A stretch of DNA of 32,000 bases from assembly GCA_024275415.1 (NCBI GenBank), contig JAJRZD010000050.1, forward strand, positions 25,433-57,432, written 5' to 3'. The DNA comes from an archaeon. Its GTDB lineage: Archaea > Asgardarchaeota > Thorarchaeia > Thorarchaeales > Thorarchaeaceae. Made by a program: the position numbers and the translations under genes. Positions 1-22,464 of the stretch are shown here, one piece after another. The notes below the pieces were generated by a model, which was given only the letters and a program-made list of their open reading frames with translations, searched no databases and was not told where the DNA came from. How positions within the stretch are numbered: position 1 is the stretch's first letter; each line of letters starts with the position of its first letter.

Positions 1-2366
1 GCTTGCAAATTGCCTGCGACATCAAAGAGATACAATTTATCGTTAGTTGCATCAGTCACATAGACGATATCATCATCTACTGCAATCCCAAACAGCCATG
101 AGGAAGGAACGCTCCAGTTCAGGAGAAGCGTGCCGTCTGGGGAGTATTTGAGAACATATGCAGACACTCCAGTCACGTAGTAATTGCCTTCTGAATCGAA
201 CGCTATATCTAATGGTGTGCTCAAGACATTCGTATCGATAGCATGTGTGTCGACCAGTTCATATTCCTGAATAGCAAATTTCTGAACTCGATTAGTTGAG
301 GAATCAGTAACGAGAATGCCGTCATTGGTTACACAGATGCCTATGGGGTCAACGAACTGCCCAGGGCCTGAGCCAGAACTGCCCCATTCGGATTCGAAGT
401 TGCCACTGGGGCTGAACTTCTGCACACGATGATTGTATATGTCTGTGACGTAGATACGCCCGTCTCCATCTACTGCAATATCGACAGGCCCGTTCATATC
501 TCCGGGCGCGCTCCCAGTTGTCCCCCATGTCCTTATGAATGTCCCATTAGGATAGAACTGTTGAACACGGTCATTCGTATAGTCCGCGACCAACAGGTTA
601 CCATAGGCGTCCACTGCAAGACCCGCAGGTAGGTTGAACTCGCCGGACGCAGATCCAGAGGCACCCCATTTGTTGATGAAAGCGCCGGTGCTCTTGTTCA
701 GAACCTGAATCCTGTTGTTGAAGTAGTCCGAAACAAATAGCAACCCATCTGGGGACACTGCCACACCAAAGGGATGATAGAATTCACCATCACCTGTCCC
801 ACTAGTACCAAAACTAGCCACAAAGATGCCTTCCGCAGTGAATTTCTGGACTCGGTCGTTCTCGTAGTCTGTGACATAGACAAATCCGTCCGTGTCTATA
901 GCAATACCCGTGGGCATCGAGAAATTACCTGTTTCGTTCCCGGTCATTCCCCATGATTGTATCGGTTCGAAATCATCATCGTACCGCACAACTCGATTAT
1001 TGAGGATATCAGTCATATAGATTGAGCCATCAAGTCCCATTGCTATGTCATACAGCATCTTTGCTTGGTCAAGCCCTGTTCCTGTGGTGAACTCCCATTC
1101 TCTCATGAATTGGAACTGTTCTGTACTATCAAAGGTCGTTTCTTGGTCGTCCCACGGACCACCCAGTGCAGATGCGCCCCCGAGATATTCGGTGTCCCAT
1201 GGGGCAGGAATCGGGTCGTTCTCGTAGATCCCTTGTGCTTCCCAACCGAACACCTTTTTGTCAATCCACTCGTCGGCTTCATAACCCGTATAGACCCCAG
1301 TAGTTTCTGAAAGTCCTCTCTCCCAGCTCTTGATGCCTTGATTGAGCTTGCGCACATCGAAGTCCTCGGTTTCACTATTGTAATCGAAGACAAATACACC
1401 TTGACCGTATGCAGAGGCGACGATTTCTCCATAGCCATCCTCATCAAGGTTCTGACTGGCAGTCACTGAGGTCACAGGTGCCCATATTGTATCACCACTG
1501 TTCCACCGTGGAACATAGAAGTTCTTCCTGCACGGGCATTCCTCGAAAAGATACACCTTGGAATCATAGCTCCCTGCGACAATCTCGACCAACGAGTCAT
1601 TGTCACTGTCAACGATTGCAATAGAAGATACCCTGTCCGTGATAGTATCGCCAGAGTCCCAGACAGGCTCGAACTCTAGCCAGTGTTCATCCAGACAGTA
1701 GGGATAGGCTGAACTGTCGATGTAGTCAAACACGTATATTTTCCCATCCCAAGCGCCAGCTATTATCTCGTCATGGCTGTCATGGTCAATGTCATATGCT
1801 AAGACAGACCACACTTGTCTGTCTATATACATTCCACTATCCCAGACAAGCTCCCATGGAGATGGAGTTGAAGATGGTGTGAATGGGTCATCGGCATTTC
1901 CAATCTGTTCGAACACGTAGATACGACCATCTGCGCTTCCAGCCACGACTTCGAGCTTGCCATTATTATTGGCGTCCATGAAATCAACATCCATGACATC
2001 ACCTTGGATTACGCCGTCCCCGGCATCCCATACCGGATAATACTGACGCATCTCGTCATACCATCGGAAGATGTGAACCTCTCTGTCGTTGAGGTATCCA
2101 CCAGCTGATGCCATCCATTCCTGGTCCTCAGTGACCGCAATGGCATGAGTGGAGCCTCTAACATTGTTAGGCTCCCATATCTTCTGGTACTCGTTCGTGA
2201 GGTTGAAATCGGTGTTCATCTGGTTCGTAATCGAGTCCACAAGGCCGTCGGAATGGTTTGGCGATTCTAGTGCCAGACCCTGTTCATTGAGCATGGCTGG
2301 CATAAGTGATACCAGCATCAGGGCAATGAAGCCCAATGATATCAGTTTGAGTGTCGCATGTTTCAT
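1..2366 (-). CDS. Large secreted beta-propeller protein with FG-GAP/VCBS-like and NHL repeats (3'-partial, runs off window start)
   Basis: Not in the ORF track. Manual translation from ATG at 2366 is open to base 1 (>=788 aa). N-terminus [25 protein letters not shown] is signal-peptide-like. Four repeats of type DxD/NxDxxxEI/VVAG ([95 protein letters not shown]) precede >=8 NHL repeats (e.g. [56 protein letters not shown]). ATGA overlap with the upstream stop, and GGAGGGTGAT SD-like motif upstream. Confidence 0.92.
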
Positions 2367-5300
2367 TTGGTATCACCCTCCTTCTTGGACGACTTGGTCT
2401 TCTTTCTGGATGAGGTTTCTTTCTTAGCAGTCGTCCTCTTCGAAGTAGTCTTCTTAGAGGTGGTTTTCTTAGAGGCAACTTTTTTCTTTTTCACGCCTGC
2501 ATCGCCGCCACGTACGATGCCCACTACGGTTCGTAGCACCGGTGGCACAATAATACCTGCGATGAATCCGACACCACCAATGATAGCAGCAACAATCCAG
2601 AATGGATACCCCTCGGTGATTGGGACTATCGGATTCTGCCCCAGCTGCACCTCCTCAAAGTCTGAGATGCCATCATTATCTGTGTCCGCATCTGTTGGAT
2701 CAGTCCCGTAGACATTTACTTCTTCACCATCAGATAGGCCATCTCCGTCGCTGTCAGGGTTATCAAACCCTCCGGGAGCTCCTGTCCAGTGCCATATGCC
2801 CCGTGAGTCATTTCCGATGGGCAATGGGGCCATCCATGTCTTCTCGAAGTAGAATTCCTCGCCATCTGAGAGACCATCGCCATCGAAGTCGTACTCGAAT
2901 CCGTCTGCGATACCATTACCGTTCTCGTCCCATTCTAGGGGGTCGGTGCCGTACACTAACTCGAGACCGTCCGGCAGGTAGTCATTATCTGTATCGCTGT
3001 CATTCACATCAGTCGGGTATAATGGCCAGTATGACCCATTGTCCTGAGAAAGTAAATACCCTGGTGGGGTTGTCGCACTCGGAGGTGTTGTATGCGCAGT
3101 CACGCCTTCCCAAGATTCCAAGTTGTCAGGAATCTCATCGCCATCCGTGTCATTTGACATCGGATCCGTATGCGTGACATAGATTTCATTGTAGTCATTG
3201 ATGTTATCATCATCGCTGTCCGGATCATTCGGATACGTGCCGTACTGGAGTTCAAGTCCATCGTCAAGCCCGTCTGAATCTGTATCATTCTTGACAGGAC
3301 ATGAGCCATATCGCAAGACGATAGTAAGCGCCTCATACGGATAAGTGATGATACTGATGTTCTCGAGTATCATCTCTTGCCCATCCAACAGCGTGTCACC
3401 GTCAGTGTCGTTGTTGAGCGGGTCTAGTGGGATGGGGTCATGACCCGGCCATCCCAGTCCAAGGTATATCTCCTGCGAATCGGTAAGGCCATCAGCGTCA
3501 GTATCAACTGTGATTGGTGAGGTATTATAGTCAAGAACCTCGTCACCATCTCCAAGAGGCAATGTCATGGAACCATTCTCGTTTGGATAGTCTAAAGAGT
3601 CATGGTCAGTATCCCAATCCAGAGGATCTGTGTTGTATACGAGGAGTTCCTCACCATCTCCTAAACGGTCTTCGTCAGTGTCCCACAGACGCGGGTCAGT
3701 GTGCGAAGTGAAGACCTCATAACCGTCGATTAACCCGTCACCGTCAGTGTCGGGTAGTAGTGGATCAGTGAGATAAATGAGTATCTCTTCGCCATCTGTA
3801 AGCCCATCCGCATCAGAATCACGTACAAGTGGGTTGCAGTAGAAGAAGAACAGCTCCTCACCATCAGAGAGACCGTCCATGTCTGTGTCGTTGCTGACCG
3901 GATTAGTACCGTAGAGGTAGTATTCATCCCCATCGAGCACCATGTCATTGTCACTGTCAGGATTTCGTGGATCTGTAGGCAGCATCCAGTCCTCGTAGTC
4001 TGGCAGGTGGTCGTTGTCAGTGTCCGGGTTCTGAGCATCAGTCCCTGAACCACCAGGACCTATCTGTTCATACCCGTCCTTGAGCCCATCTGAGTCTTGG
4101 TCTCCATTTGTGGGATCCCATTGTGGATCACGAGCAAGCTCATTCCCATCAGTGAGGTAGAGTGCTACAGCACCCCATGCGGTGTCATTGTCGGTGTCGG
4201 GGTTGCAGGGATTCGTCTTTACCAGCTTGACCTCTGGATAACCCTCGGCATCAGGAATCTCTGCTATCTGACCCTTCACCTCAGTGCCATCATGGAGATC
4301 CCAGATATAGTCGTCAGTAGGATAGAAGGGATCGTTCCAGTCACCTGAGAAGAGCCATGCTACGCTGTCATCGTCCGTATCAGCGTCGAGTGGGTGTGTC
4401 CATCTGAAATTGACATACTGGTAGAGTTCCACTTCGGTTTCATTCATGTACTCGACGCCATTACTCCACTCCTCACCGTCCAATAGACCATCGTTATCGG
4501 TATCCGGATTGAGTGGATCAGTATGGTCGTCGTAGGTGACACCCCCAATCTCGACTGATCCCACTGCACCGTAGGTTCCCTTAGTTAGTGACACATCATA
4601 GGCGGTATTCACCTCGTACCAATCATAGAGCATATCGCCATCAGTATCGATGAGGAAGGGCGAGGTGTGGTATACCTTGCACTCTTCATAGTCTGTGAGG
4701 TTGTCACGATCGGTATCGTTCAAGAGGGGATTTGTCTTAAAAATCTCATATTCTTCTTGATCTGTAAGAAGGTCACCGTCCGTATCTACTTTCCAAGGAG
4801 CTGTGTTGAGTTCCAGTTCCAATTTATCGTTGAGCCCATCACCGTCAGTATCAGCATTGTTTGGGTCAAGGAATGTGGATGAATCAGCAAGGGCGAACTC
4901 TGGAAGCGTGCCATAGAGGAGGGACATCCTGTTCTCGAAGTCGTCAGGCAATCCGTCCGCATCCGAATCTGTTAGGTCTGCCGCCTCATCGCCATATGTG
5001 TCCGAGCCCCACGATGCGGAGAGATCCATGGTTGTCGTCCATGGACCACCAAAGTGCGTGCCGAACGACGTGAAGAAGAGATCCACTCCGAAGTAGAGCG
5101 AGCAATAGAGCGTGATATAGATCCCGATAGTCGAAGTAGAGATATCACTCAGGGTACGTATGATTACAGGGTCGGGGTCATCTGCTAAAGCCATTAGGGC
5201 CGACCCTGAGAGGATTCCGGATCGCTGTTCGAACCTGAGTCCCACTTTAAACGTTCCTTGAAACACACAAATGAGGATACGTATGCTAAGGGTCACACCA

Positions 5301-7111
5301 ACTATGATATCCAAAAGAAGAGTCGATAAGGCTGGTAGTCCTTGCCCTTGATACTTCTTGCTAATCTCGAAGACCAGCGATAAGGTAAGAGTAATTGACA
5401 CTGAGAGCAGTTCAGAGAACCACTCCAATATCGTACTTATGACACCACCAGGTCCAGGCGCGAGGAATGCAGAGATACTCAGGCTGAAGTCAGCATCAAG
5501 CTCGAAACGAAGTCCCCACTCACGCACATCTATGAAGCCCCGTTCAGTGTTGGATGCATCAATAGGTGGGAATGCAAGTTGCATCCATGCATGACCGAAG
5601 AAGTCAATGGTGAACTGTGCCATGAGTCCTTGTACCCAGTCATTTCCTGTCGGTAGGAAGGCACAGATACCCATTTCAATGTCCATAACCGGAATTACAT
5701 CAATGAACCTGCGGAGTTCGGTAAATCCTGCACGGACATCACCAAAGTCTGCAATGTCCACACCGCCAAGAACCGCTTCGTTCATGAAAGTTTCAAAGGC
5801 AGTCTTGTCAATCTCAAAGTCTGGAAGAAGCTTGATACGCAGAACCGCACCAAAGCTAGCGAAATTAGAACCGAGGTTCAGTGGAGTTCCGAGTCTAAAG
5901 AGAAAGACGGGAATAAGGCCTGCAAGGTCTGTCTGAACTGGGGTATTGATAATCTGGTTGAAGAAGTCCCCGATGTAGTCATCTACATCATACCACGAGT
6001 CTAGGATAAGCTGATCGATGAGTGACCAGAGCTCAAACATCTGTCGGGGGAGGAGTTCTGGCATCCAAGTGGCGAAATCGTGGTTGGTGACATTGAAACC
6101 TTGGTCGGTGAACCAATTCTGAAGTTCATCGCGAGCGTCCTCTATGACGCCCTGCATGTAATTGTTTAGTTCTTCAGCAGCATCAACGTGAATGCTCAAA
6201 TCTTGGAATCCTAGGTCTATCAGGGAATACAGAACAGTGTCAATAAGCCATCCAAGAGGCCCACCAACGCCGCTTGTGGGAGCCATCTCTCGTAGACCGA
6301 TGTAGTCTTCTCCTTGAGATGGGATCCCCAACCGCATTATAGGTTCAAGCTCCTCTCCTTGGTCATTGTATTGCTTTTCCTCAACGACCCATGACTCGGT
6401 GAGTGCAGGATCAGTAATTGGATCAGGAACATGCTCCCCGGTATAGACTTCGGGCATGACACCCTTTGCAAAGTACTCGTTGATGTTATCAGCAAAATCA
6501 CGAAGAACGTCTTCTCTGAGGTTCTCGCCAGTTCGGGACCATTTTGGTCTGTCCGAAAGCGACATTGTGTCAGCGATTGTCCAGATAGAATAGAGCCTAC
6601 CTAACCGGACATCAAGAACTTCTGCATCATCGACATGAAGGTTCGCGGCATCTCCCATGAAATCCTTCAATCGGTAGGCACTTCCAATGCCAAAGATGTG
6701 CTCGATAAATGAGTATTTGCCAATAACATCAGCAACCTCCTTCCACGGAACAGGGATGTCACGAATCACGATGCCATCCTGATTACTTTGGAAATAGTAT
6801 ATTGCATAGTCTGGACGGTAACGGTCTAATTCAGCATCGAGTAACAAGATTGATGAGATATCGAAGGACTCGACCAAGATTCCTTGTTTCACGAGGGGAC
6901 TGATCGTTTCAATGACCATGCTCTTAGATTCCTCACACTCTTTGTCGTAGTAGATATGTACAAGTGCGGGATTGTATTCGGCTATTTCCGGTTCCGTTGG
7001 TTCTGGCAGTGCTGACGCAGAAACAGGGAACATCAATGATGAGCTAAGGAGTATCATCATAGTGATGATGACTACTAGCTTACGTACTCCTATTTTCAAA
7101 TTAACCTGCAA
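2363..7111 (-). CDS. Giant cell-surface protein (~1580 aa): signal peptide, unknown N-terminal and beta-rich domains, ~26 thrombospondin type 3-like Ca-binding repeats, C-terminal TM anchor, Lys-rich tail
   Basis: TTG start (7111, or alternative TTG at 7099). Signal peptide [29 protein letters not shown] ends in an AxA site. Repeated D[TS]DxDGLxDGxE motif; TM segment [23 protein letters not shown]; basic tail [24 protein letters not shown]; many NxS/T sequons. Confidence 0.93.
2421..2480 (-). repeat. Four degenerate 15-nt tandem units encoding the (S/A)K(K/R)xx Lys-rich tail
   Basis: + strand units TTCTTAGCAGTCGTC / CTCTTCGAAGTAGTC / TTCTTAGAGGTGGTT / TTCTTAGAGGCAACT at 2421, 2436, 2451 and 2466. 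Confidence 0.75.
2651..4969 (-). repeat. Protein-level array of ~26 TSP3-like (DxDxDGLxDGxE) repeats
   Basis: Counted by eye from [12 protein letters not shown] to [12 protein letters not shown]. The typical unit continues ...Y-x-T-[DN]-P-x-x-x into the next repeat. DNA is degenerate, so this is a protein-level repeat. Confidence 0.9.
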
Positions 7112-7889: not shown

Positions 7890-8525
7890 TTGAAACACAA
7901 CGACGGTCCTGATTCGGGACACCTCCTCGATATCGCCAACAGATTCATGAATGAGTTGAAGTTCAGCGATGCTATCGAAGCATTGGAGAGGGCTGCGCAT
8001 ATCGATCCAAACAATCGAACATTATGGGATCGACTAGTGATCTGTAACCTTGAGTTGAAGCGGCCAAAGAAAGCTCTTGAAGCGATGAATTTCATCCTAC
8101 AGATTGATCCTAATGCATACCAAATCTGGACTGAGAAAGCGTACCTTCACTTTCTGCTTCAGGAACACAAAGAAGGAATCGATGCTCTCCAGACGAGCCT
8201 TACTTTGAATCCCAAGAATTACCGTGATTGGTTCTTACTTGGTTCTGTCTATATTGCGGGAGAGGAATGGGATGAGGCTCGATGGGCACTCCATAATGCA
8301 CTTCAGCTCAATCCAAACGATTCAAAGCTCTGGTATAACCTTGCTGTAGTCAATTTCATGCTGGGCGATCTTGGTGCGGCTGCTGGAGCTGCCGAGCTTG
8401 CTAAGGCAATAGATCCGACTCTGGAGATATCTGAGATTGGATGGCTAGAGGAACTGATAGATTCCACAAACTTCTTTGGTGATCATGGTGACTCATTGAG
8501 CTTTGATCTCGCTGCCGGAGGTTAA
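7890..8525 (+). CDS. Tetratricopeptide repeat (TPR) protein
   Basis: About five 34-aa TPR units (A..ALERA..IDPNN..LW; A..AMNFILQIDPNAYQIW; ALQTSLTLNPKNYRDWFLLG; ALHNALQLNPNDSKLWYNLA). TTG start preceded by GAGGT. Confidence 0.92.
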   Translation: MKHNDGPDSGHLLDIANRFMNELKFSDAIEALERAAHIDPNNRTLWDRLVICNLELKRPKKALEAMNFILQIDPNAYQIWTEKAYLHFLLQEHKEGIDALQTSLTLNPKNYRDWFLLGSVYIAGEEWDEARWALHNALQLNPNDSKLWYNLAVVNFMLGDLGAAAGAAELAKAIDPTLEISEIGWLEELIDSTNFFGDHGDSLSFDLAAGG

Positions 8526-10516
8526 GTCTTCTTTTTTGGCCTTGTTTTCTTTCTAGGTTTCTTCTTGGGAGTTTCTTTTGGTTGCCGTTTTTGAACCGTT
8601 TTCGGCTCTCCAGAATCCGGCTTTTTCCCTTTCAGTAGATCAAGCTCTTTCGAAAGAGTTTCGATCCTGCGCTTCATCTTGAACTGTTTTGCCGCATCTA
8701 GTGCTTGCTCTGTTGCATTGATTAGCAGTAGAGTTTCACGTTCTTTCTCTCTACTGTCCTGAATAGCGCTAAGTTCTTTTTTCCGTTTGGCAAGCACACT
8801 CAGAAGCCCTTTGATTGCCTCAGATGCCTCAGCCTTTGTAAGAGTTATCTCCTCAGGTTCTTCCTTTGCAATGCTGAGGATTCTATTTATCTGGTCATTA
8901 AGACTGATAAACTCATTAAGCGAGGACGAGAGTATCTCAATAACCTCCTCATCCCCCTGTGCATCGCTCACTGCTTGTTGCAACGTTTCGATGGCTCCTG
9001 ACAGGAACTCAGCCCGCTCGTCAAGAGATGACCTTTTCCGTTCCAGCCATCGCCATTCGCTAGAAATCTTCTGGGACAGGGTTCTTGCATCGTTGATTTT
9101 CTCTTGGTACTCGTCATACTTTCTCTTTGCTTCTTTCCATTCAGCTTCTAGCACATCAGTCGCGTGTGTGAGCTGATAGCTTAAGATGTGTCCAGCTTGG
9201 GCTTCAGTCAAGACCCTGCTTTCCTTAATGGCACGTATTGTTTCGACCCATATCCTCTCAAGTTCCTCTTCGTCCTTTGTGGATCTGCCGCTTTCATCGA
9301 ACTCTTCGGATATTCCTTTGATGACTTTGGTAAGGTCTTGGATTTCAGATATCTTTGCTCGGAGTAGCGAATGACCCAGTCTATCGCTCAGCTCGTTTGT
9401 AAGTTTCTCTCGCTCATTGGGGACTTCGAGAAGTGCATGAGTATTGTCAATTAGGATTTGGAGTGCCTGTTCATATTCTGCAACAGCCTCGTGGAACTTA
9501 GACTCCCTGATTAGTGTGTCCCCTCTCTTCTGTAACTCCAATACTCCCTCAAGCACATCATAGGGAGATGTCCTTAGGATACGGGTTCCGAACCCCACAC
9601 TATCTTCAGAGAAGAAGTCTAATGCCTGCTGTCCCCATAACATCGAAAGCACAAGGATTTTGTTTGGGGTCGCCAAGAAGATGTATTGGCCATATGCACG
9701 TACATGGTGTATTTTCGTCCCAGCAATCTTTGCAGAACCCAATAACACTCCTTTATTGATGTCCCATACCGAAACAATGGATGTGTTTGATGAAGCAATG
9801 AGGTACAGGTCGTTTGCCCACAATGAGCTGATGCTCCCATTGCCCGCCTGATTCAGGGTCTTATCTAGAGACCAATCCACTCTGTTCCAGAGCTTGATGC
9901 TTGCAGTAGTCACTCCTGTTATGATGAAGTTCGTATTGCCGACCAGTAATGCGCCCTTGTCTTTCTTATCCAGACGTTTAAGCTCGGTGGGAGCTCCTTC
10001 GCTTTCAAGCTTCCAGATAATAGGCTCGTCTTTGCTAGTGGAAGTGCAGATGATTTCACCATCACCCCATATACTGACGATATCCGCCTTGAAGAGCTGC
10101 CAGCTTGAAGTGTCATGGGAATCTTTCTTGATTGAAACGAGACGTCCTTCCTTGGCTCCCACGTAGAGGGAGTCGCCTCTCAGAGTGGAGGTCGCGGCTG
10201 TGTAGCTAAGTTCGAACCAGCCAATCATACCCCATGTATTTTTGTTCCAGACGTAGACTCTTTTCTCACATGTGGCATAGACCTGATTCTCATCAACATG
10301 GACTGCGAGAGGAGGTGAACTAGTTTCGCCTAGCTCTGCGACCAATTGCCAGTCACTGCGAGACCAGACTCTTACTTTAAGGTCAGTGCATGCAGCATAG
10401 ACATACTGTTCGTCTACGTTCAGATAGACTGCATCCCCCTCAAGCTCAGAAACGATTGTATGGTGAAATCGCAATGAGGATGCAGTACCCCCTGCGGATT
10501 TGGACATGGTATTCAT
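8522..10516 (-). CDS. WD40 beta-propeller + TPR-like helix pair + long helical/coiled-coil region + Lys-rich tail
   Basis: Seven WD40-like blades in the first ~295 aa (ending VRVWS, VYVWN, LVSIK, IIWK, IKLWN, VSVWD, ILVLS). These are followed by RGDTLIRESKFHEAVAEYEQALQIL, an E/K/L-rich helical region and the tail PKKKPRKKTRPKKKT. Start is ATG 10516 or 10507. Confidence 0.88.
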   Translation of the reverse strand: MNTMSKSAGGTASSLRFHHTIVSELEGDAVYLNVDEQYVYAACTDLKVRVWSRSDWQLVAELGETSSPPLAVHVDENQVYATCEKRVYVWNKNTWGMIGWFELSYTAATSTLRGDSLYVGAKEGRLVSIKKDSHDTSSWQLFKADIVSIWGDGEIICTSTSKDEPIIWKLESEGAPTELKRLDKKDKGALLVGNTNFIITGVTTASIKLWNRVDWSLDKTLNQAGNGSISSLWANDLYLIASSNTSIVSVWDINKGVLLGSAKIAGTKIHHVRAYGQYIFLATPNKILVLSMLWGQQALDFFSEDSVGFGTRILRTSPYDVLEGVLELQKRGDTLIRESKFHEAVAEYEQALQILIDNTHALLEVPNEREKLTNELSDRLGHSLLRAKISEIQDLTKVIKGISEEFDESGRSTKDEEELERIWVETIRAIKESRVLTEAQAGHILSYQLTHATDVLEAEWKEAKRKYDEYQEKINDARTLSQKISSEWRWLERKRSSLDERAEFLSGAIETLQQAVSDAQGDEEVIEILSSSLNEFISLNDQINRILSIAKEEPEEITLTKAEASEAIKGLLSVLAKRKKELSAIQDSREKERETLLLINATEQALDAAKQFKMKRRIETLSKELDLLKGKKPDSGEPKTVQKRQPKETPKKKPRKKTRPKKKT

Positions 10517-10544: not shown

Positions 10545-10864
10545 TAAGTCTAGTTCCACAAAAGATTGTTTAAGACTTTGCTCATCAAGGAGGTTCTGTG
10601 GAAAAAGTACACAAGTCCCCACTTATCAGATGAGAATAGCTCGCCGTTCCAATTTTAGACGACCCAAAAGTGACAAGACCGCATGTTAATCCTACAATTC
10701 TCTTCTGTGTCATTCGAATCTTACTGGAGCCTATCAGAGAACAAGCTCGATTGCTAAAGGAATTTAAGCGATCTTGAGCGACCTACAAAAAAATAAGGGA
10801 GTAGACACAGAACACACTTAAGACATTCACCCCTTCATTTATCGTTAATACCGGAGGTAGATTA

Positions 10865-13552
10865 TTGGATAGCAACAAGTGGAGACGTGAGCTTGACCGA
10901 CTCTCTGAAATGAAAGGAATGCTTGTTTCGCTAAATCCGAGCCTTGAGGAGCAAACGAGCCACCAAGTTCGCCAACTGTATGATGTATTCGCGAATCTGA
11001 CGAAGACCGAAAACGAACTGGGTACTGCTGGATTCATGGCCAAGCGGAAGCTCCAGAGTCAGCTGGAGAGGGTCAACAGCGATCTTGAAGACCTGTTTAT
11101 GCGGATAGTGCGAGACTTTGCAGAGTACTTCCGAAAAGAGCATAGGGACATAATGGGACTGATGCCTCAGCTTCAGGAAATGAAACCAGCGAAAGCAAAG
11201 ACCATCTCATCTGTAAGATTTCCTTCAGTTGGGGCTGGTGATTTTGCTGATTTCGAGAGGCTGTACGAATTTGGCAACAGCTTCTCCAACAAATGCATCG
11301 ACCTAAAGAACGAACTGTCGCGTGAGGTGAAAGACCTTCTTGATGAGAATCGCAGGACTGTCGAGACCTTTGAGCGACATATCACAATTGACAGAGGCGA
11401 GGTGGCAACGACCCTTTCCAATGAGGACACTCACGGGCTTTCAGTGTCTGATCTGATAACCATGAACAACCGGTTGAAGTCAGAGCAGGTCTACCTCGAT
11501 GGTAGGAGAGGCGAAGTCGGGAGGATGCTTGGTGTTTCGCTGATCAGTGACATAGAGTCAGTACAGGCTTGGATTGAAACTGCCGTCCGGTTAGGATTAG
11601 AACTACCAATGGACTTCTCACAGAAGCTTAGGATTCTTGCCCGAGAGGCTTCCACGGCAGACAACCTGACGACATTGATTTCTCTTGAAAGCCAGATGCA
11701 TGCATCGCGCCTCCAACTAGCGAACATGCTGAAGGATAGAATCATCAACATGAAGCATGAGGTGACGACCAAATTCGTTGAGGCCGGGATACCGACAACT
11801 TCAGACATCATTCCACAAGCCCCCTCCATGGTCGTTGAGAACCAGGAGGTTCCAAGTCTTCTGTCTGCCTATCAGAAGATGGTCGAATGGGAGGGACAGA
11901 TCAAGCTAGCTCTCAAGAATAAGATAGAGGAGCTTCTTGACGACATCGATAAAGCGGCTGATTCGCCAAAAGACACAGGGATCACTGATGTGGTGGCTGT
12001 GCGCGAATTCGTTGCTGAAGCAAATAAGAAGATGAAGAAGGGCGAGCTTGATGACATGGTAGTGATCTATCAAAAAGCATCAACGATGGTCGAGGAGTAC
12101 AAAAAGAATGTGAAGGATCTTATCAAAGGATACCTCGTTCGCTTCAACGAGCTTGCGAGCTCTGCGGATCGCGTACTAGATTATGCCCAGCTCAGCAAGA
12201 AAGCACCGAAGGTCGAGGAACTACAAGGAGGCATCGTGTTCCATCTTAAGTCACTTGAGAATCTGCGAACCGCAGTGGAAAGTGGAGTGGCAACTTTCAG
12301 AGATGCCTGCAAACAGGAGATTGATGCGATCATACAAGACCTACAGACCATCAAGCCTGCATATGCCGAGATATTCATGCCCATCATCACAGAACTTGAT
12401 GAGGGTGAAACAAGGATTTCAAAATTGAACGAGTTCGCAGAGATCCGTTCTGAGATGCGAACGATAAAAGAAACCATTCTGGCCAAGTCGAAAGAGGCTA
12501 TTGAGAATCTAAGGTATCGTTTGGGCGTCAAGATCCGGCTTGCAGCTGCAAAGCTCATGGGTGCTGGAGTCGAGATCCCGAAAGAAGTACAGGAAGCCAT
12601 TAGCGAACTGAATAGCATCGGTGTTGCAGCAGACACGGTATTCAGCCTTCCACAGTTGGCAAGGAAAATGGTCGAACTCTATGAGAAGAAAATCACAGGC
12701 AATGTGGTGAAGTCACTGAAAGCGGAGGCAACCGAGCTTCGTGCCTCGTTCGACAAGGCTGCATCCATTGGGGTTCCACTAGATAATGAGCTGGCGATTC
12801 TGAATAGTATAATCAACAACCCACCAACCGAGTTGGAGGACACAGCGGATGCATTCGATAGGCTGGCAGGACTGACGACTTCTAAGGACATCCAGAAACG
12901 GGTGCGTGACAGGGGAAATGAAGCCTATCGACAGATCAATGGTGCTATCTCCATTTTTGAGGAACAAGGGATGCCCGATTTCGTCGTGAGGTTGAAATCA
13001 TTGCTCGAACAGGTTCCTGAAAGGATGCAGGCAGAGTCCAAGTTCATTACTGAGCCTTTGGAGGTCTGTCTAACACTAGCCAACGTGCAGGAAGAGATGC
13101 TTGGCGTGATGAAAAGCATTGCAGCCAAGGATAAGGAATCCTATGAGAAGGAAATACGCGAAAGAAGCAACTACTACTCGACCATCGAGCGAGTATATGA
13201 GAAGCACCCTGCTGACTTTAGTAGGTTGATATATCCCCTTGATAAAATGAAAGAGTTGGAAATGAACCTCCAGAATGCCGAGCAACTAGACAAGGCATTG
13301 GAATACTTCAACGAACTAAAGAGGATGCGAACCGAGTGGGTCGAGAAGGCGGAGAAGATGGATGACTGGCACAAGTCGATGAAGATGTTCTTGACTGGCT
13401 TTAGTCCCACCGCTAGTATCGATGAACGCGAGAAGTTCCTTGATGATGCGATCAGGAAAATCAAAGACACCTACAGTAGAGAGGACATAAGCTCTTATTT
13501 GACATGGGCGATAAAAGAGATAGCTCTCACAATGGTCGGAAAGCGAGGTTAA
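10865..13552 (+). CDS. Large all-alpha-helical repeat/rod protein (895 aa), function unknown
   Basis: TTG start with GGAGGT (10853-10858) 6 nt upstream. Amphipathic helices throughout with no TM or signal peptide. G-[LIVM]-x turn motifs at residues 244, 308, 372, 568, 636 and 702. Confidence 0.9.
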   Translation: MDSNKWRRELDRLSEMKGMLVSLNPSLEEQTSHQVRQLYDVFANLTKTENELGTAGFMAKRKLQSQLERVNSDLEDLFMRIVRDFAEYFRKEHRDIMGLMPQLQEMKPAKAKTISSVRFPSVGAGDFADFERLYEFGNSFSNKCIDLKNELSREVKDLLDENRRTVETFERHITIDRGEVATTLSNEDTHGLSVSDLITMNNRLKSEQVYLDGRRGEVGRMLGVSLISDIESVQAWIETAVRLGLELPMDFSQKLRILAREASTADNLTTLISLESQMHASRLQLANMLKDRIINMKHEVTTKFVEAGIPTTSDIIPQAPSMVVENQEVPSLLSAYQKMVEWEGQIKLALKNKIEELLDDIDKAADSPKDTGITDVVAVREFVAEANKKMKKGELDDMVVIYQKASTMVEEYKKNVKDLIKGYLVRFNELASSADRVLDYAQLSKKAPKVEELQGGIVFHLKSLENLRTAVESGVATFRDACKQEIDAIIQDLQTIKPAYAEIFMPIITELDEGETRISKLNEFAEIRSEMRTIKETILAKSKEAIENLRYRLGVKIRLAAAKLMGAGVEIPKEVQEAISELNSIGVAADTVFSLPQLARKMVELYEKKITGNVVKSLKAEATELRASFDKAASIGVPLDNELAILNSIINNPPTELEDTADAFDRLAGLTTSKDIQKRVRDRGNEAYRQINGAISIFEEQGMPDFVVRLKSLLEQVPERMQAESKFITEPLEVCLTLANVQEEMLGVMKSIAAKDKESYEKEIRERSNYYSTIERVYEKHPADFSRLIYPLDKMKELEMNLQNAEQLDKALEYFNELKRMRTEWVEKAEKMDDWHKSMKMFLTGFSPTASIDEREKFLDDAIRKIKDTYSREDISSYLTWAIKEIALTMVGKRG

Positions 13553-13557
13553 ATCAA

Positions 13558-14952
13558 ATGGTAACAGGTTCCCCTAGAATCGGAGAAGATGAAACGAAGG
13601 CAGCAGAAGTCTTTGCGATTGGTATCGGCGAGTGTGGCTCTAACATCGTGGGCTCTTATCTCAAAGCAAGCAAGGATAGGAAACTGCCCTCCCGAGTCAG
13701 AGGCTACTTACTCATGAACACAGATCGTGCTGACCTTACAAAAGTGCGGTCTAAATATGAGATACCGAAAGAACACACCATGCTCTACGGAGCAAGCGAG
13801 ATTGGTGTGGGTGGTCGTTTCATGGACGGCTATAATGCAATCCTTGAATCGAAAGACATCATCTTTGATCAGCTTGGAGACCTCGGATTCGAAGGTGTGT
13901 CAGGTTTCTGTATCTTCACTAGCTTAGGCGGTGGTACTGGCTGCGGAGGCACTCCAGCCATCATCGAGCTATTAAAACAGCGTTTCCAAGAAGAGGAGGG
14001 TCGCAGGATATTTGTCTATGTGATAGGCATCCTTCCCTTCGAAGGACAGTCAAGTGAAGCTCTCAATAGCATCTGGGCTGTTTCAAGACTGCTCCGAGCG
14101 CAGTTACAAGAACGCGGTGCAGACCTGACAATTCTCCTGAGCAATAGGACAATGCTGAAACGTATTCTCAATTCCCGACGAGCGGACAGCGTGGATTATC
14201 TTCAGCGCGAACTTGAGGTCGATATCGCTGATATCAATCAGATCGAGAAAATGGTTCCCTCAACGCTTGATGAAGGAGGCGAACTCGAAGCAAGGACTGA
14301 GCAGGCATTTGTCGAGCTGGTCAATCCACTTGCGCTAGACGTTGTGGAAGCTATGCTCTCGCCAGGCGTCTATGAGCCGAACAAGGATGTGTTTCCAACC
14401 ACTGACCTTGCAGATTATGCTCGAAAGCTCGATCCGGTCGTCGTCCCGGCACTGTACCAAGATGTCGGACTTATTCCGGATGCTGGGAGTATGCCTCGTC
14501 AGCTGAGGACAATGATTGACTATGCGATACGAGAATGCAGTTATGCCGACATCGGTGATGAGCCAAATGCGGAATCTGTTTACTACGTGTTCTCTGGTCC
14601 CAGACATGTCAGCAAGGCCGAGTACGGTATGCACCTAAAAGAAGCACTGGACAAGTTCATTGCTCCTGGCGCAGCCATCACTCCCTGCTATGTGCAGCGT
14701 TTCACCAAGGACGCGTCTACAGACCTGCTTCTTTTGCTAGGATTGCCCAAGATTCCTGAACTCGTTCAGATTATCAATGAGGCGACACAGCTCGTGAATC
14801 TGCACAGTGGTGCATCTCCACTCAAGCAGAGCTGGTTCATGCGCTCGAAAGGTGTCCAGAGAAAGGAGCTTGTTGATGCAATCGCTGACTTCAGAGAACT
14901 GTTCAGCTATTACATGACACCAGGAACAGGAGATATGTCACAGGGCGTGTAA
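13558..14952 (+). CDS. Divergent tubulin/FtsZ-superfamily GTPase (tubulin/CetZ-like, 464 aa)
   Basis: T1 loop GIGECGSNI; T2 MNTDRADL; T3 GVGGRFMDG; signature T4 SGFCIFTSLGGGTGCGG; ILPF...LNS; LLSN; T7 TTDLADY. ATG 13558 is 5 nt after the upstream stop with GAGGT SD, preferred over the track's 13504. Confidence 0.93.
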   Translation: MVTGSPRIGEDETKAAEVFAIGIGECGSNIVGSYLKASKDRKLPSRVRGYLLMNTDRADLTKVRSKYEIPKEHTMLYGASEIGVGGRFMDGYNAILESKDIIFDQLGDLGFEGVSGFCIFTSLGGGTGCGGTPAIIELLKQRFQEEEGRRIFVYVIGILPFEGQSSEALNSIWAVSRLLRAQLQERGADLTILLSNRTMLKRILNSRRADSVDYLQRELEVDIADINQIEKMVPSTLDEGGELEARTEQAFVELVNPLALDVVEAMLSPGVYEPNKDVFPTTDLADYARKLDPVVVPALYQDVGLIPDAGSMPRQLRTMIDYAIRECSYADIGDEPNAESVYYVFSGPRHVSKAEYGMHLKEALDKFIAPGAAITPCYVQRFTKDASTDLLLLLGLPKIPELVQIINEATQLVNLHSGASPLKQSWFMRSKGVQRKELVDAIADFRELFSYYMTPGTGDMSQGV

Positions 14953-14956
14953 AACC

Positions 14957-16021
14957 GTGTCCGATACATTCAAGGTAGAAGATCTCATCGATAGACTTCT
15001 TCTAGTGATAACCCTCAATTCGACTCTCGTTCATTTCCTGATAAGCTCCCAGATAGAGGGGTATGTTGATCCCGATAGGGTCGATTCCCTGACACAGGGG
15101 CTTATCAAAACAAGGTCGTGGATTGAGGAAGCAACGACTGCAGATGATATCCCCGCTTCGACATCCAATATTCTCAGTCTCATCGTGAAGCGGCTGACAC
15201 AGATTGAGAGCATCCTTCCCAAACTCTCCGAGCGAGCAAAGCAGGCTGAAAAAAGCCAGACTCCCGCGGCCGAGATTCTTTCTCTCTTGGATGGTAGCAC
15301 ACCATCATCAGCTACAAGTCAAGCATCCGCACCATCTGAACGAAGAGAAGACGCCACGATAGTACCATTGGTTTCAGGACAGCCAGAAGTACCTCAGGAG
15401 CCATTCAAAAGAGTTGATGTTGAGAATGACGAGTGGGGCATCATCGGTCAAACACAGATGCTCATCCAGCAATACAGTAAACGTTGCCATGTACTCCTTC
15501 CGACTTTCTGGTTGGAAGCCATGCGTGAGCTCCACAAGTACCAATCACAATCCCAGTATCTGGGAGATGTGATCGAGATACCTGCACGAGTTCTTGCCAA
15601 GATAATCAAAGGACTTCTGACAGAGGCTCCAGGTGCAAGACTGCTTCAGGATTTATTCAAGAAACGTCAACAGGAGAACTATCTTGACCCGTCCGAATCC
15701 GAGAGGATCAATAGGGCAGTTGCCAAGTATTTCCAGGGTCTTGAAGGGGTTCTCACAGACAACCTGCCTAATCCATCGGACAAGATTGCGGAGGCACAGA
15801 ATGCCTTTGATGGCTTTGGCTGGGGCGGTCCTGAGCTCGAGAAGAGGCTGATAAAACGAATCAATCAGCAATGTGAAGAAGCGATGCAGAACGCAGAGGC
15901 AACAACCGATGCAGCAAGAGCTGCCGTCTATGCCGAAACAACCAAGCTGTTATGCAAGCTGCAACATGCAATCCTTGCTGAACCTCGACTCAGGGAAATC
16001 CTTGCCGAGATGAAACCATAA
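14957..16021 (+). CDS. Hypothetical two-domain helical protein with S/A/P-rich linker; third gene of the tubulin-like operon
   Basis: GTG start 4 nt after the GTPase stop; 354-aa ORF; low-complexity segment GSTPSSATSQASAPSE...PEVPQEP between two helical regions. Confidence 0.82.
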   Translation: MSDTFKVEDLIDRLLLVITLNSTLVHFLISSQIEGYVDPDRVDSLTQGLIKTRSWIEEATTADDIPASTSNILSLIVKRLTQIESILPKLSERAKQAEKSQTPAAEILSLLDGSTPSSATSQASAPSERREDATIVPLVSGQPEVPQEPFKRVDVENDEWGIIGQTQMLIQQYSKRCHVLLPTFWLEAMRELHKYQSQSQYLGDVIEIPARVLAKIIKGLLTEAPGARLLQDLFKKRQQENYLDPSESERINRAVAKYFQGLEGVLTDNLPNPSDKIAEAQNAFDGFGWGGPELEKRLIKRINQQCEEAMQNAEATTDAARAAVYAETTKLLCKLQHAILAEPRLREILAEMKP

Positions 16022-19504: not shown

Positions 19505-20110
19505 ATGTGCAAGATTGGTGTGTTGGTAAGTGGTCGTGGCACCAATCTCCAGGCCCTGCTTGACGCTCAGAATGAAGGGAATCTCGGGGGAGAGGTAGTT
19601 CTTGTCGTTAGCAACCGGAGCGGAGCGAAGGGGTTAGAACGAGCAAGAGCTGCTGGCATCAAGACCGAGGTCTTGACTCGGCTCCACTATCCCGACAAAG
19701 ACGAATATGATGCCAAGCTAATCGAGGTTCTCATCGAGAACAACATCGACTTGGTAGTACTGGCGGGATTCATGCGAATCCTCACTGAACGGTTCATCTT
19801 AGCATTCGAGAATAAGATCATCAACATTCACCCTTCACTTCTGCCAGCGTTCAAGGGGGTAAGGGCACAATGGCAGGCGGTAGATTACGGGGTCAAGATA
19901 TCTGGATGCACAACTCATTTTGTTGACCGTGATATCGATGCAGGTCCCATCATCATGCAGCGGGCAGTCCCTGTCGCCTCTGACGATGATGGTGATTCAT
20001 TGGCGGAGCGGATTCTTGAGCACGAGCATGAGATCCTTGTGGAATCAGTCCGTCTGTTCTGTGAGAATCGGTTAGAGATACGCGGTAGGAAGGTCATAAT
20101 AAAGGAGTGA
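19505..20110 (+). CDS. purN: Phosphoribosylglycinamide formyltransferase (folate-dependent)
   Basis: VLVSGRGTNLQA, VVSN, LAGFMRIL, INIHPSLLPAFKG, SGCTTHFV, DAGPII motifs. Confidence 0.97.
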   Translation: MCKIGVLVSGRGTNLQALLDAQNEGNLGGEVVLVVSNRSGAKGLERARAAGIKTEVLTRLHYPDKDEYDAKLIEVLIENNIDLVVLAGFMRILTERFILAFENKIINIHPSLLPAFKGVRAQWQAVDYGVKISGCTTHFVDRDIDAGPIIMQRAVPVASDDDGDSLAERILEHEHEILVESVRLFCENRLEIRGRKVIIKE

Positions 20111-20116
20111 TGAATG

Positions 20117-21514
20117 ATGTGTGGCGTTCTAGGATTGCTGGGCGGGCACTCGATACCATTTGCCAAGGACTTGCTTCTATTGTTGACTCATCGGGGTCAG
20201 GATGCATCCGGATTGCTCTGGGTCGATTCGGATGGGTACAGGTCGAGCAAGACGATGGGACACCCTGCCATGATAGAAGTGCCGAATGCGCGCAGTGAGA
20301 TTATCATTGGGAGCACGAGGTACCCGACCTGCGGCAAAAAGGTCGTTTCAAAGGATGACCTGATGACCTTCGTGGGACCGTTCTCGAGAGAGAGTATTGC
20401 GCTGACACACAACGGGAACATCACGAACATGAAAAGGATAACGAACGCAGGATACGAGTGTGATTCCGAGTTCATCACTGACAGGCTGGCAGAACTCCTT
20501 TCGCAGAACGACGGGAATCTCACCCGTGCATTTCGTGAACTCGATAAAGAGATTGATGGTGCGTATAGCCTGGTCGGCATTCATAATGGCGTCCTTTTCG
20601 CTTATCGGGACGCAAGGGGGTTCAAGCCCCTCGTCTTTGGACGTACCGAGAGTCACACTGTTGTCGCATCCGAGAGTACGGTCTTGGATATGGCAGGGGC
20701 GACGCTTGAAAGGGATGTGTATCCCGGCGAGCTGTTACTCTTCTATCCCGATATGTCAATGGAATCGCACTCTATCGCTCAAGGGCGGACGCATTCGCAC
20801 TGCTTCTTTGAGTACGTCTATTTCGCTCATCCCGCCGCCACGATTGAGAACCAACTTGTGTATGACACACGGTTCCGATTGGGTAGGGCTCTCGCCCAGA
20901 GATTCAGGAAAATGTCTCTCGAGATGCCAGATTACGTTGTACCGGTGCCCGACACCAGCAGACCAGCATCACAGGCATTAGCTGAGGAACTTGGGGTTCC
21001 TATGCGGGAGATTATCCTCAAGAACCGTTATCTTGGTAGGACGTTCATCGCACGTTCACAGGAAGAGAGAGATGCGATGGCAAAGACCAAGTACATCTAC
21101 CTTGAGGACAAGATCCGTGGGAAGACCATCTTGGTGGTGGATGACAGTATCGTCAGAGGAACCACCGCGAAGATGATCGTAGCAGACCTGAAGAAACGAG
21201 GTGCCTCGAAAGTCTATTTTGCAGCTACCTGTCCACCGCAGACGCATCCATGCTATTACGGGATTGACATCGCCACAGACAAGGAACTCATAGCCTCTGA
21301 CACTTCGATTGAAGGTATCGCGAAGTACATTCAGGCTGATGCCCTGATCTATCAGGAGATGGTGGGGCTTGTTAATGCTATCGGGATCAAGGATGTCTGT
21401 CTGGCTTGTCTTGATGGCGAATATCCAACAAGGTATGCAAGGCAGATCAGAGAGAACATCGAGGTCAGTGGTTCTTCATCGATGGGAAGGGATTACGAGA
21501 GGTCATTTGAATGA
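20117..21514 (+). CDS. purF: Amidophosphoribosyltransferase (Fe-S type)
   Basis: N-terminal MCG nucleophile (start 20117 rather than 20114), HRGQDASG, HNGNITN, CFFEYVYF, PVPDT, VVDDSIVRGTT, CYYGID, CLACLDGEYP. Confidence 0.97.
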   Translation: MCGVLGLLGGHSIPFAKDLLLLLTHRGQDASGLLWVDSDGYRSSKTMGHPAMIEVPNARSEIIIGSTRYPTCGKKVVSKDDLMTFVGPFSRESIALTHNGNITNMKRITNAGYECDSEFITDRLAELLSQNDGNLTRAFRELDKEIDGAYSLVGIHNGVLFAYRDARGFKPLVFGRTESHTVVASESTVLDMAGATLERDVYPGELLLFYPDMSMESHSIAQGRTHSHCFFEYVYFAHPAATIENQLVYDTRFRLGRALAQRFRKMSLEMPDYVVPVPDTSRPASQALAEELGVPMREIILKNRYLGRTFIARSQEERDAMAKTKYIYLEDKIRGKTILVVDDSIVRGTTAKMIVADLKKRGASKVYFAATCPPQTHPCYYGIDIATDKELIASDTSIEGIAKYIQADALIYQEMVGLVNAIGIKDVCLACLDGEYPTRYARQIRENIEVSGSSSMGRDYERSFE

Positions 21515-22464
21515 GGATTGGAACTATTGCTAGTCATAGCGCATTGAATATTATCTCAGGAGCAAAAACAGAAGGCTTTGAAACAGTCCTTCTCTCTACA
21601 CCGAACCGCACCGAGTTCTACAGGTCTATGGATTCAAACGGCGAAATCATTGAAGTGGATTCATTTGCTGACATCCTCTCAATACAACTGGACGACGTGG
21701 TATGGATCCCGCACGGATCTTTCGTTGCATATATCGGAGCCCAGCGGATTCTCGAATCAACATTGCCATTGTTCGGGAACAAGGAGTTGCTGAAATGGGA
21801 GGAGGATCGTCAGCTGAAAGCAAAGTTGCTTCACGAGAGTGGGCTGGAAACCCCTCTTGAGTTCGATGATGTTAATGATATTGATCGTCCGGTCATTGTC
21901 AAGACCTATGGTGCAGCAGGTGGTGAGGGATACTTCATTGCCAAGGACAAGGATGAGGTTCTAAAGAACATCCCATCTGACAAACAGTACTCGATACAGG
22001 AATATGTCGTGGGCACGAAGGTCTTTGTCACCTACTTTAACTCATTGGCAAAGGACAGGCTTGAAGTCTTTGGAGCTGATATTCGCTATGAGACCGACGC
22101 TGATGCGAATTTGCGATTCGACGACCGTCCATCCTTCGTGGTCATCGGCAACCTCCCGATGGTGCTACGTGAATCTACTCTTCACAGGTATTACGAGATT
22201 GGCAAGAACTTCATCGAAGGGTTCAGGAGGCTCACAGGTCAAGAGCTGCCAGGACCTTTCTGTATAGAAACCATAATCGACAGGGATCAGAGGATCTGTG
22301 CTTTCGAGTTCAGTGGGCGCATCGTTGCCGGGACGAACATCTGGATTCCCTCATCGCCCTATTCGTTTCTCCAGTTCGGTGAGGAGATGTGGATGGGAAA
22401 ACGCATCGCACGAGAGATTGGAGAACTAATGCAGGAGGACAGGCTGGATGAAGCCATTTTATAG
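21511..22464 (+). CDS. purP: FAICAR synthetase PurP (ATP-grasp, formate-dependent)
   Basis: IASHSALNI, PHGSFVAY, LFGN, GAAGGEGYF, RYE, GNLPMVLRES, GPFCIE, EFSGRIVAGTN. ATGA overlap with purF. Confidence 0.88.
   Translation: MRIGTIASHSALNIISGAKTEGFETVLLSTPNRTEFYRSMDSNGEIIEVDSFADILSIQLDDVVWIPHGSFVAYIGAQRILESTLPLFGNKELLKWEEDRQLKAKLLHESGLETPLEFDDVNDIDRPVIVKTYGAAGGEGYFIAKDKDEVLKNIPSDKQYSIQEYVVGTKVFVTYFNSLAKDRLEVFGADIRYETDADANLRFDDRPSFVVIGNLPMVLRESTLHRYYEIGKNFIEGFRRLTGQELPGPFCIETIIDRDQRICAFEFSGRIVAGTNIWIPSSPYSFLQFGEEMWMGKRIAREIGELMQEDRLDEAIL

Follow-up and report, generated by a model that had tools for sequence, protein, structure and literature searches.

Asg.Tub of a Thorarchaeaceae genome, a CetZ-like member of the tubulin superfamily, lies at the centre of a conserved three-gene operon

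The stretch analysed here, referred to as the window, comprises 32,000 nt of a Thorarchaeaceae genome (assembly GCA_024275415.1, contig JAJRZD010000050.1, positions 25,433-57,432 of the forward strand) and carries a gene for a 464-residue protein of the tubulin superfamily, which a first-pass annotation, made from the letters alone, had singled out as a mosaic of tubulin-like and FtsZ-like motifs. We identify this protein as a member of Asg.Tub, the CetZ-like Asgard clade named by Santana-Molina, del Saz-Navarro & Devos (2023, Front Microbiol 13:1100249, PMC9871819), encoded by the middle gene of a three-gene operon, whose other two products are called UP (upstream partner) and DN (downstream partner) below. 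We consider it probable that Asg.Tub is a GTPase that assembles into filaments and acts together with these two partners. Homology, fold, motif conservation, family membership, phyletic distribution and operon conservation were computed here, while GTP hydrolysis, polymerisation, partner binding and the cellular role are what we infer.

Asg.Tub represents a third kind of tubulin-superfamily protein in Asgard archaea, beside FtsZ and the rare true tubulins, and has so far been treated in trees only, where it appears as a long branch or as an outgroup. Our literature search found no paper characterising the protein or its neighbour genes, and no report of Asg.Tub filaments, activity or partners. 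What is added here is the breadth of the family, its restriction to families devoid of true tubulins and the co-inheritance of a cassette of three genes. Since this cassette is tight and co-inherited, and occurs only in tubulin-less families, it makes a testable candidate for a cytoskeletal module composed of one operon and three proteins.

Family membership and distribution

A Pfam scan of the product gave a single domain above cut-off, PF00091 (Tubulin/FtsZ GTPase domain), which matches residues 17-201 with 72 bits against a cut-off of 33 (E 1e-19), far beyond chance. Asg.Tub was founded on KXH77455.1, OLS30664.1, OLS26264.1 and PWI48967.1 (PMC9871819). A comparison by eye with the supplementary FASTA of that paper shows the target to be about 90% identical to full-length KXH77455.1 (Thorarchaeales SMTZ1-83), and from about residue 240 to 464 it matches both Thorarchaeales rows (KXH77455.1 and OLS30664.1) of the supplementary C-terminal alignment almost letter for letter. 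P0115, a homologue labelled Heimdallarchaeota LC_3 like the founder OLS26264.1, falls together with the target inside a clade with 99/97 support. The target clusters with the founders and has the distinctive C-terminal domain of the group, and judged by these comparisons it belongs to Asg.Tub. The novelty of the lineage, which the first-pass annotation had implied, is consequently lost, given that the target is an orthologue of the founder KXH77455.1 and the gene as flagged was already known. The "CetZ-related Asgard archaeal clade" employed as outgroup in 2026 papers on Asgard microtubules (10.64898/2026.02.15.705738) is probably the same group.

In the 2023 study the group was represented by four sequences and called scarce, and its neighbours were described only as unknown coiled-coil genes (PMC9871819). 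Among the 5.8 billion proteins searched here, more than 150 clusters of relatives were found at 42-96% identity to the target, with 85-96% in Thorarchaeota and around 60% and then 50% in genomes labelled Promethearchaeota, Hodarchaeales, Heimdallarchaeota, Hermodarchaeota and Asgardarchaeia. Asgard labels are attached to all named homologues above 42% identity, and almost all of the relatives are annotated as "hypothetical". An exhaustive search of 1.84 billion representatives yielded four matches below 1e-30, the next relatives having 33% and 28% identity; with so few strong matches and such a drop after them, the family is sharply bounded.

The distribution was surveyed in 400 Asgard genomes from 33 families. 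Asg.Tub is matched in 126 genomes, UP in 129 and DN in 123, and all three occur in the same nine families, none of them being present in the other 24. Within families that have it, Asg.Tub is found in 75/85, 21/22, 15/19, 5/5 and 4/4 genomes, among other counts, and the families lacking all three proteins include those with 135, 31, 14, 12 and 12 genomes. The high-quality genomes give the same picture, each protein being present in 32 of 90. The family is by far most common in Thorarchaeia, and its homologues also include proteins of genomes labelled Heimdall-, Hod- and Hermodarchaeota. True tubulins, recognised by PF03953 (Tubulin_C), are found in 8 of the 400 genomes (12 genes), belonging to four families none of which has Asg.Tub, and the same search gave no PF03953 match anywhere in the genome of the target.

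The three-gene operon and its partner proteins

The three genes run on one strand and are separated by 5 nt (UP to Asg.Tub) and 4 nt (Asg.Tub to DN); their coordinates and those of the main features of Asg.Tub are collected in Table 1. When twelve loci from different Asgard families were compared, UP homologues of 870-1170 residues, with identities from 61% down to 16% (E 0 to 7e-12), were found directly upstream in all twelve. DN homologues of 290-380 residues lie directly downstream in ten, always on one strand and in the order UP-TUB-DN; the other two loci are second, paralogous UP-TUB pairs from one family, with a convergent gene of 740 codons instead of DN. By eye, DN adjoins Asg.Tub in 25 of 26 pairs checked, the exception being G387:C69. 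Genes outside the cassette differ between lineages.

Table 1. Coordinates, in the window, of the operon genes and of the main features of Asg.Tub (aa, amino acid residue)
Feature	Position	Strand	Basis
UP, upstream partner, 895 aa, TTG start, GGAGGT at 10853-10858	10865..13552	+	ORF, start context
Shine-Dalgarno-like GAGGT, lying inside the 3' end of UP, 8 nt ahead of the Asg.Tub ATG	13545..13549	+	read from sequence
Asg.Tub gene, CetZ-like tubulin-superfamily GTPase, 464 aa (P0001)	13558..14952	+	PF00091, family membership, AlphaFold2 model
T1 loop GECGSNI, aa 24-30; Glu25 replaces the Gln of tubulin/CetZ and is invariant in the family	13627..13647	+	alignment
NTD (T2), aa 54-56		+	motif search of the product
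S4 strand and T4 signature SGFCIFTSLGGGTGCG, aa 115-130, ending in GGGTGCG; Cys129 invariant	13900..13947	+	alignment
Variable family-specific insert between T6/H6 and H7, about aa 205-245	14170..14290	+	gapped in alignment; low pLDDT
T7 (synergy) loop TTDLADY, aa 281-287; Asp283 and Asp286 invariant	14398..14418	+	alignment
C-terminal helices, aa 400-416, 421-431 and 435-452, with invariant W426, F427, K431 and G432	14755..14913	+	alignment, model
DN, downstream partner, 354 aa, GTG start, 4 nt past the Asg.Tub stop	14957..16021	+	ORF, junction read

A side observation concerns family f11, with genomes of 3-6 Mb, which often has a second cassette whose tubulin-like gene is about 50% identical to the target and which is devoid of DN, as at G067:C1:2897425-2902179 (L039) and G072:C10 (L043).

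Neither UP nor DN has a Pfam or NCBIfam match above cut-off or a PDB sequence family. Profile searches of the PDB with the two proteins returned only compositional helical matches (apolipoprotein, designed bundles), and a feature search of the ESM Atlas gave nothing usable beyond the cluster of UP itself. UP, the large helical protein of the cassette, contains many charged and Leu residues and is best conserved in its C-terminal 130 residues or so, which hold an invariant W-H pair. Its highest 19-residue hydropathy is 1.13, hence no transmembrane segment is suggested; by the same measure none is evident in Asg.Tub or DN either, the first helix of DN being borderline (1.61) and placed by an AlphaFold2 (AF2) model within an N-terminal helical domain.

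The AF2 model of DN, with a predicted local distance difference test (pLDDT) of 81.5, comprises an N-terminal three-helix bundle (residues 7-100, pLDDT 62-84), a linker predicted as disordered (residues 103-145, below 50) and an all-alpha C-terminal domain (residues from about 150 to 354, above 90), into which the conserved positions fall. A fold search with this model returned generic three-helix-bundle matches to the N-terminal domain, with Z at most 11.4, and barely tested the C-terminal one. Clusters of the AlphaFold DB contributed two likely orthologues of DN. Weak look-alikes of the C-terminal domain were also seen at the C-termini of U1PAW8 (1096 residues), A0A2H9NDX8 (461 residues) and A0A849PIB6 (617 residues, with a PKD domain), all of them uncharacterised proteins (probability 1.0, template modelling score by query 0.32-0.34). 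A prediction of the complex of Asg.Tub, GTP and DN (score 0.22, mark 0.32) speaks neither for nor against binding.

In type III partition loci, TubZ is accompanied by TubR and TubY. The layout of three genes around a tubulin-like GTPase recalls such loci, and the partners in the present cassette are likewise lineage-specific and lack annotation, so that the cassette could be imagined as a DNA-partition or mobile-element system of the TubZ/PhuZ kind, made of a tubulin-like motor, an adaptor and a regulator. We hold this to be very unlikely. The cassette resides on the chromosome, as a rule in a single copy, almost all genomes of its nine families have it, as the per-family counts given above illustrate, and its flanking genes are ordinary housekeeping genes that vary by lineage. 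Besides, Pfam and PDB profile searches detected no DNA-binding domain in UP or DN, and no TubZ or PhuZ chain is present among the best 60 of 130 PDB sequence matches of Asg.Tub.

Other loci with tubulin-like genes were inspected for similar neighbours. At L049-L054, from Odinarchaeia-like genomes of 1.3-1.4 Mb, the Odin-type tubulin gene adjoins an open reading frame (ORF) of 443-470 codons, for which hhalign aligned only a coiled-coil-like stretch; a relationship of this neighbour with UP or DN was rejected (hhalign probability below 1%, one copy tested, L053). Coiled-coil neighbours had been noted in 2023 as well (PMC9871819). The nearest relative outside the family, P0127 (33% identity, with GGGTGCG and GEGG motifs; L059:8001-10149, Logan contig SRR7811641_30), follows SMC/ScpA and dihydroorotate dehydrogenase genes and has no UP homologue beside it, and the 262-residue product of its overlapping downstream gene shows a weak hhalign match to DN (probability 14%).

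Sequence motifs and conserved residues

The longest ORF containing the gene runs from 13504 to 14952 on the plus strand (482 residues). The start at 13558 is to be preferred to that at 13504, because it lies 5 nt past the TAA of UP (13550-13552) and 8 nt past the GAGGT, and because the orthologues begin there. The position of the GAGGT supports this start and also a tight translational linkage between the two genes.

All the motifs quoted in the first-pass annotation, i.e. GECGSNI, NTD, SGFCIFTSLGGGTGCG, TTDLADY, FSGP (residues 345-348) and PKIPEL (residues 397-402), are found where they had been read, each exactly once in the product. The GGGTGCG at residues 124-130 conforms to the GGGTG(S/T/C)G signature of the superfamily. 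To describe conservation, 29 family members with 42-89% identity to the target were aligned, and the invariant positions trace the nucleotide-binding loops one after the other: G22, G24, E25, G27 and N29 in T1; N54, T55 and D59 in the T2 region; G83, G85 and G86 in T3; G124-G126, G128, C129 and G130 in T4; L159, P160, F161, Q164, E167 and N170 in T5; and S195 and N196 in T6. They are followed by P280, D283 and D286 in T7, where the acidic pair lines up with that of FtsZ (NLDFADV) and that of CetZ, and by the C-terminal W426, F427, K431 and G432. Such a pattern would be expected from purifying selection acting on a GTPase that binds nucleotide and is self-activating. With the PF00091 match, an intact gene and both T7 acidic residues conserved, Asg.Tub is a bona fide GTPase of the superfamily, as the first-pass annotation had held, and probably an active one. 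That its activity is coupled to polymerisation, also claimed there, is a reasonable inference from the conserved loops and T7 acids.

The residues considered unusual at first sight, the T1 Glu, the signature Cys and the Ser-Asn pair of T6, are not sequencing noise, since E25, C129 and S195-N196 are invariant in the 29 members. As for the combination of tubulin-like and FtsZ-like motifs, the mosaic is real and characterises a handful of divergent CetZ-like lineages rather than this gene alone. In an alignment of 84 sequences, GGGTGCG is common only to Asg.Tub and its nearest outgroups P0127, P0141 and P0134, the T1 Glu is also found in P0127, P0141 and P0136 plus one row of the canonical CetZ clade (P0143), and the SN of T6 in P0127, P0141 and P0136. 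T2 reads NTD as in FtsZ and CetZ, where tubulins have DLEP, and the length of T5 matches that of CetZ and FtsZ and is shorter than in tubulins. Past residue 452 or thereabouts the C-terminus is unconserved among the orthologues and modelled with low confidence, and the last 12 residues or so contain no conserved peptide of the FtsZ type, in agreement with what had been noticed from the single sequence.

Predicted fold

The AF2 model of Asg.Tub has a pLDDT of 81.7 and a predicted template modelling score of 0.83, with residues 201-250 reaching only 47-69. It is predicted to adopt the two-domain fold of the superfamily, with a Rossmann-like GTPase domain, the core helix H7 and an activation domain, and it keeps the acidic T7. 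Fold comparison of this predicted model gave OdinTubulin (Z 34.7, 367 residues aligned, root mean square deviation (rmsd) 3.4), CetZ 3zid (Z 33.8, 324 residues, rmsd 3.1), BtubB (Z 33.2) and beta-tubulin (Z 32.5), and no FtsZ chain is found among the 50 fold matches listed. The alignments reach about residue 455, i.e. the last C-terminal helix, with tubulins and end at about residues 415-423 with the CetZ crystal chains. As modelled, the fold match is effectively tied between tubulins and CetZ.

Phylogenetic position

Concerning the relation with FtsZ, two FtsZ genes proper are present in the genome and reach 418 and 406 bits with the NCBIfam equivalog TIGR00065, and the target gives a weak match, restricted to the N-terminal domain, of 32.8 bits against a cut-off of 295.2. 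This N-domain match, together with the FtsZ-like NTD and DxxD motifs, might be taken to indicate a third, divergent FtsZ paralogue working in cell division, a possibility to which we give hardly any credit in view of the gap in bit score, the two full FtsZ genes at hand, the lack of a conserved tail peptide and of FtsZ among the 50 fold matches listed, and the fact that about two thirds of the Asgard genomes do without Asg.Tub. The trees separate them as well (see below). FtsZl (FtsZl1/FtsZl2) was compared through Pfam Tubulin_2 (PF13809) only, which stays below threshold at 18.2 bits against a cut-off of 27 (E 0.0016). The best solved relatives by sequence are CetZ 4b46 (1.2e-9) and 3zid (1e-5), then BtubB (2e-4) and OdinTubulin (6e-3). 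NCBIfam has no CetZ model, and distant homologues were labelled by their PDB matches, the cluster names being uninformative.

Two trees, a quick one with 84 rows and a careful one with 47, were obtained with IQ-TREE (LG+C20+F+G4 with posterior mean site frequencies, PMSF) and rooted on the genome's own FtsZ pair; for eukaryotic tubulins, artubulins, Halo.Tub, TubZ/PhuZ and FtsZl, which they do not contain, published trees were read instead. The 84-row tree recovers Asg.Tub with 99% support in the Shimodaira-Hasegawa-like approximate likelihood ratio test (SH-aLRT), and leaves it outside the canonical CetZ clade, for which P0139 (3e-113 to H. volcanii CetZ, 4b46) serves as anchor. In the 47-row tree, Asg.Tub (99/97) is sister to P0127/P0141 (99/99), and both belong, with the Asgard tubulins (100/100), the P0136 group (100/100) and the P0134 group, to an assemblage at 95/91, with an ultrafast bootstrap of 95 and all members on long branches, that again stands apart from canonical CetZ, the FtsZ rows being set off as outgroup by a 100/100 branch. 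Nesting inside a described CetZ or FtsZ clade, the outcome that the first-pass annotation had named as contrary to its view, is thus seen in neither tree. Its statement that the protein fits no single classical family likewise holds, with a score far under the FtsZ cut-off, no PF03953 match and a place outside the canonical CetZ clade.

The profiles tell another story. Against a canonical CetZ profile, hhalign aligned Asg.Tub over 357 columns (residues 18-420, probability 99.7, E 4.3e-27), the C-terminal domain included, and against an Asgard tubulin profile over 174 columns of the N-domain only (E 1.3e-10), so that similarity over the full length is found for CetZ and not for tubulins. Trees and profiles accordingly disagree about the relation of Asg.Tub to the tubulin stem, which reproduces the ambiguity of 2023: the large published trees place Asg.Tub (100% support, stem 1.6-2.1) beside artubulins and tubulins (PMC9871819 supplement), and in the smaller tree of Fig. 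6 it falls outside canonical CetZ and groups with Halo.Tub (62% support), the authors holding it to be closer to CetZ and remaining cautious on tubulin origins (PMC9871819). Taking trees and profiles together, Asg.Tub belongs to the CetZ-like part of the superfamily but not to canonical CetZ.

It could be argued from the trees that Asg.Tub is a stem-tubulin lineage, closer than canonical CetZ to the ancestor from which eukaryotic and Asgard tubulins descend, and hence of consequence for the origin of microtubule proteins. The position beside artubulins and tubulins in the large published trees and the 95/91 assemblage are in line with it, as are a model that fits OdinTubulin as well as CetZ through the last C-terminal helix, and the fact that no Asgard family combines true tubulins with Asg.Tub. 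Forcing an exclusive clade of Asg.Tub and canonical CetZ is also disfavoured (difference in log-likelihood 50.1, approximately unbiased (AU) test p-AU 0.021), in a test that covers one alternative topology, with a group defined after the tree had been seen and with long branches involved. Against it stand the much stronger and longer profile match with CetZ, the absence of a Tubulin_C match, the NTD in place of DLEP and a T5 of CetZ/FtsZ length. Moreover, stems are long (0.8, 1.4 for the P0136 group and 2.3 for the Asgard tubulins, in changes per site), which makes long-branch attraction a live risk, the careful tree does not order the branches within the assemblage, its references do not include eukaryotic tubulins, artubulins or Halo.Tub, and the Fig. 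6 grouping and its authors favour CetZ (PMC9871819). All in all, we regard a stem-tubulin position as unlikely. The conflict between trees and profiles can be reconciled if tubulins arose within a CetZ-like grade, and long-branch attraction explains the trees equally well.

A bolder proposal can be built on the same data, namely that the three proteins of the cassette make up a distinct cytoskeletal system, not described so far, in Thorarchaeia, in genomes bearing Heimdall-, Hod- and Hermodarchaeota labels and in related Asgard lineages; that Asg.Tub, with its sisters P0127 and P0141 sharing GGGTGCG and GE(C/G)G, is among the nearest surviving offshoots of the CetZ-like grade that gave rise to tubulins; and that it replaces the Atub and Odin tubulins in genomes without them. 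As a whole we consider it doubtful, with perhaps a modest chance of being right.

Proposed mode of action

The reading preferred here, a filament-forming GTPase with two co-inherited partners, can be put as follows. Asg.Tub would bind GTP through its T1-T6 loops, and its subunits would join head-to-tail into protofilaments in which the T7 loop of one subunit, with Asp283 and Asp286, completes the GTPase site of the next, as it does in FtsZ, CetZ and tubulin. The filaments would then work in the cytoplasm with UP and DN, as a cytoskeletal module apart from FtsZ-based division, and could serve cell shape, the remodelling of membranes or protrusions, or the positioning of cargo.

Several observations weigh against this proposal. 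The cassette is interrupted in some genomes, with DN 8 kb away in G387 and UP 4-10 kb away in G058:C96 and G061:C230, and the second copies without DN imply that not every paralogue requires DN. No domain can be recognised in either partner, which leaves their roles a matter of guesswork. Finally, the Glu that replaces Gln in T1 and the Cys that replaces Ser/Thr in the signature sit in the nucleotide pocket and could alter GTP affinity or turnover.

Other genes of the window

Upstream of the operon and divergent from it, across a spacer of 348 bp, lies a gene for a 664-residue protein with weak matches to WD40 beta-propellers (8522-10516, minus strand), which is not found beside the cassette in two other loci for which gene tables are available (L004 and L006). 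Further upstream on the minus strand, 3-7111 is occupied by a pair of very large neighbouring genes, with an overlap of 4 nt between the ends of their ORFs (2363-2366). One encodes 1582 residues with bacterial TSP3 repeats and the other at least 788 residues with NHL, FG-GAP and propeller repeats, and the products look like a pair of surface or adhesin-like proteins. On the other side, 19505-22464 (plus strand) harbours purine-biosynthesis domains, in a formyl transferase, a protein combining amidotransferase and phosphoribosyltransferase, and an ATP-grasp protein with DUF1246/DUF1297. Further ORFs on the same strand extend to 31722, and the purine run is an ordinary housekeeping context.

Comparison with known systems

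At the protein level the target and the published Asg.Tub (PMC9871819) are the same, and they share the unstable position between CetZ and tubulins and the unannotated helical neighbours. The difference lies in scale and context, as the family is now seen in 126 of 400 Asgard genomes and its neighbours turn out to be two conserved, co-inherited families in a fixed order.

FtsZ1 and FtsZ2 belong to the same superfamily, and the target has an FtsZ-like T2 (NTD) and T7 (DxxD), but it falls far under the cut-off of the FtsZ model and has no C-terminal anchor peptide.

CetZ proteins, which Duggin et al. are said to have described in 2015 as archaeal tubulin-like proteins of cell shape (PDB 4b45, 4b46 and 3zid), provide both the best solved-structure sequence matches and the strongest profile match, which spans almost the entire protein, and the predicted fold matches theirs at Z 33-34. 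The features shared with them are the NTD, the SGP strand end and the LLxG-x-P-K/R motif before H11. The target differs by Glu in T1, Cys in the signature, SN in T6, an insert of about 40 residues before H7 and an extra conserved C-terminal helix with WFxRSKG, as well as by its gene neighbourhood. The taxonomic range differs too, CetZ being found mainly in the Euryarchaeota supergroup (PMC9871819), whereas Asg.Tub is found in Asgard archaea.

With the tubulins (OdinTubulin 7evb, AtubA/B 9f6t, BtubA/B 5o09 and the eukaryotic proteins) the predicted fold matches as well as with CetZ, at Z 32-35 over about 360 residues and with the C-terminal helices included, the T1 loop has a Cys at the tubulin position, and both fall in the same broad tree assemblage. 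Nevertheless, identity in structural alignments is only 15-20%, the profile match covers the N-domain only, and Asg.Tub is distinguished from tubulins by having NTD instead of DLEP, no Tubulin_C and no paired A/B gene arrangement.

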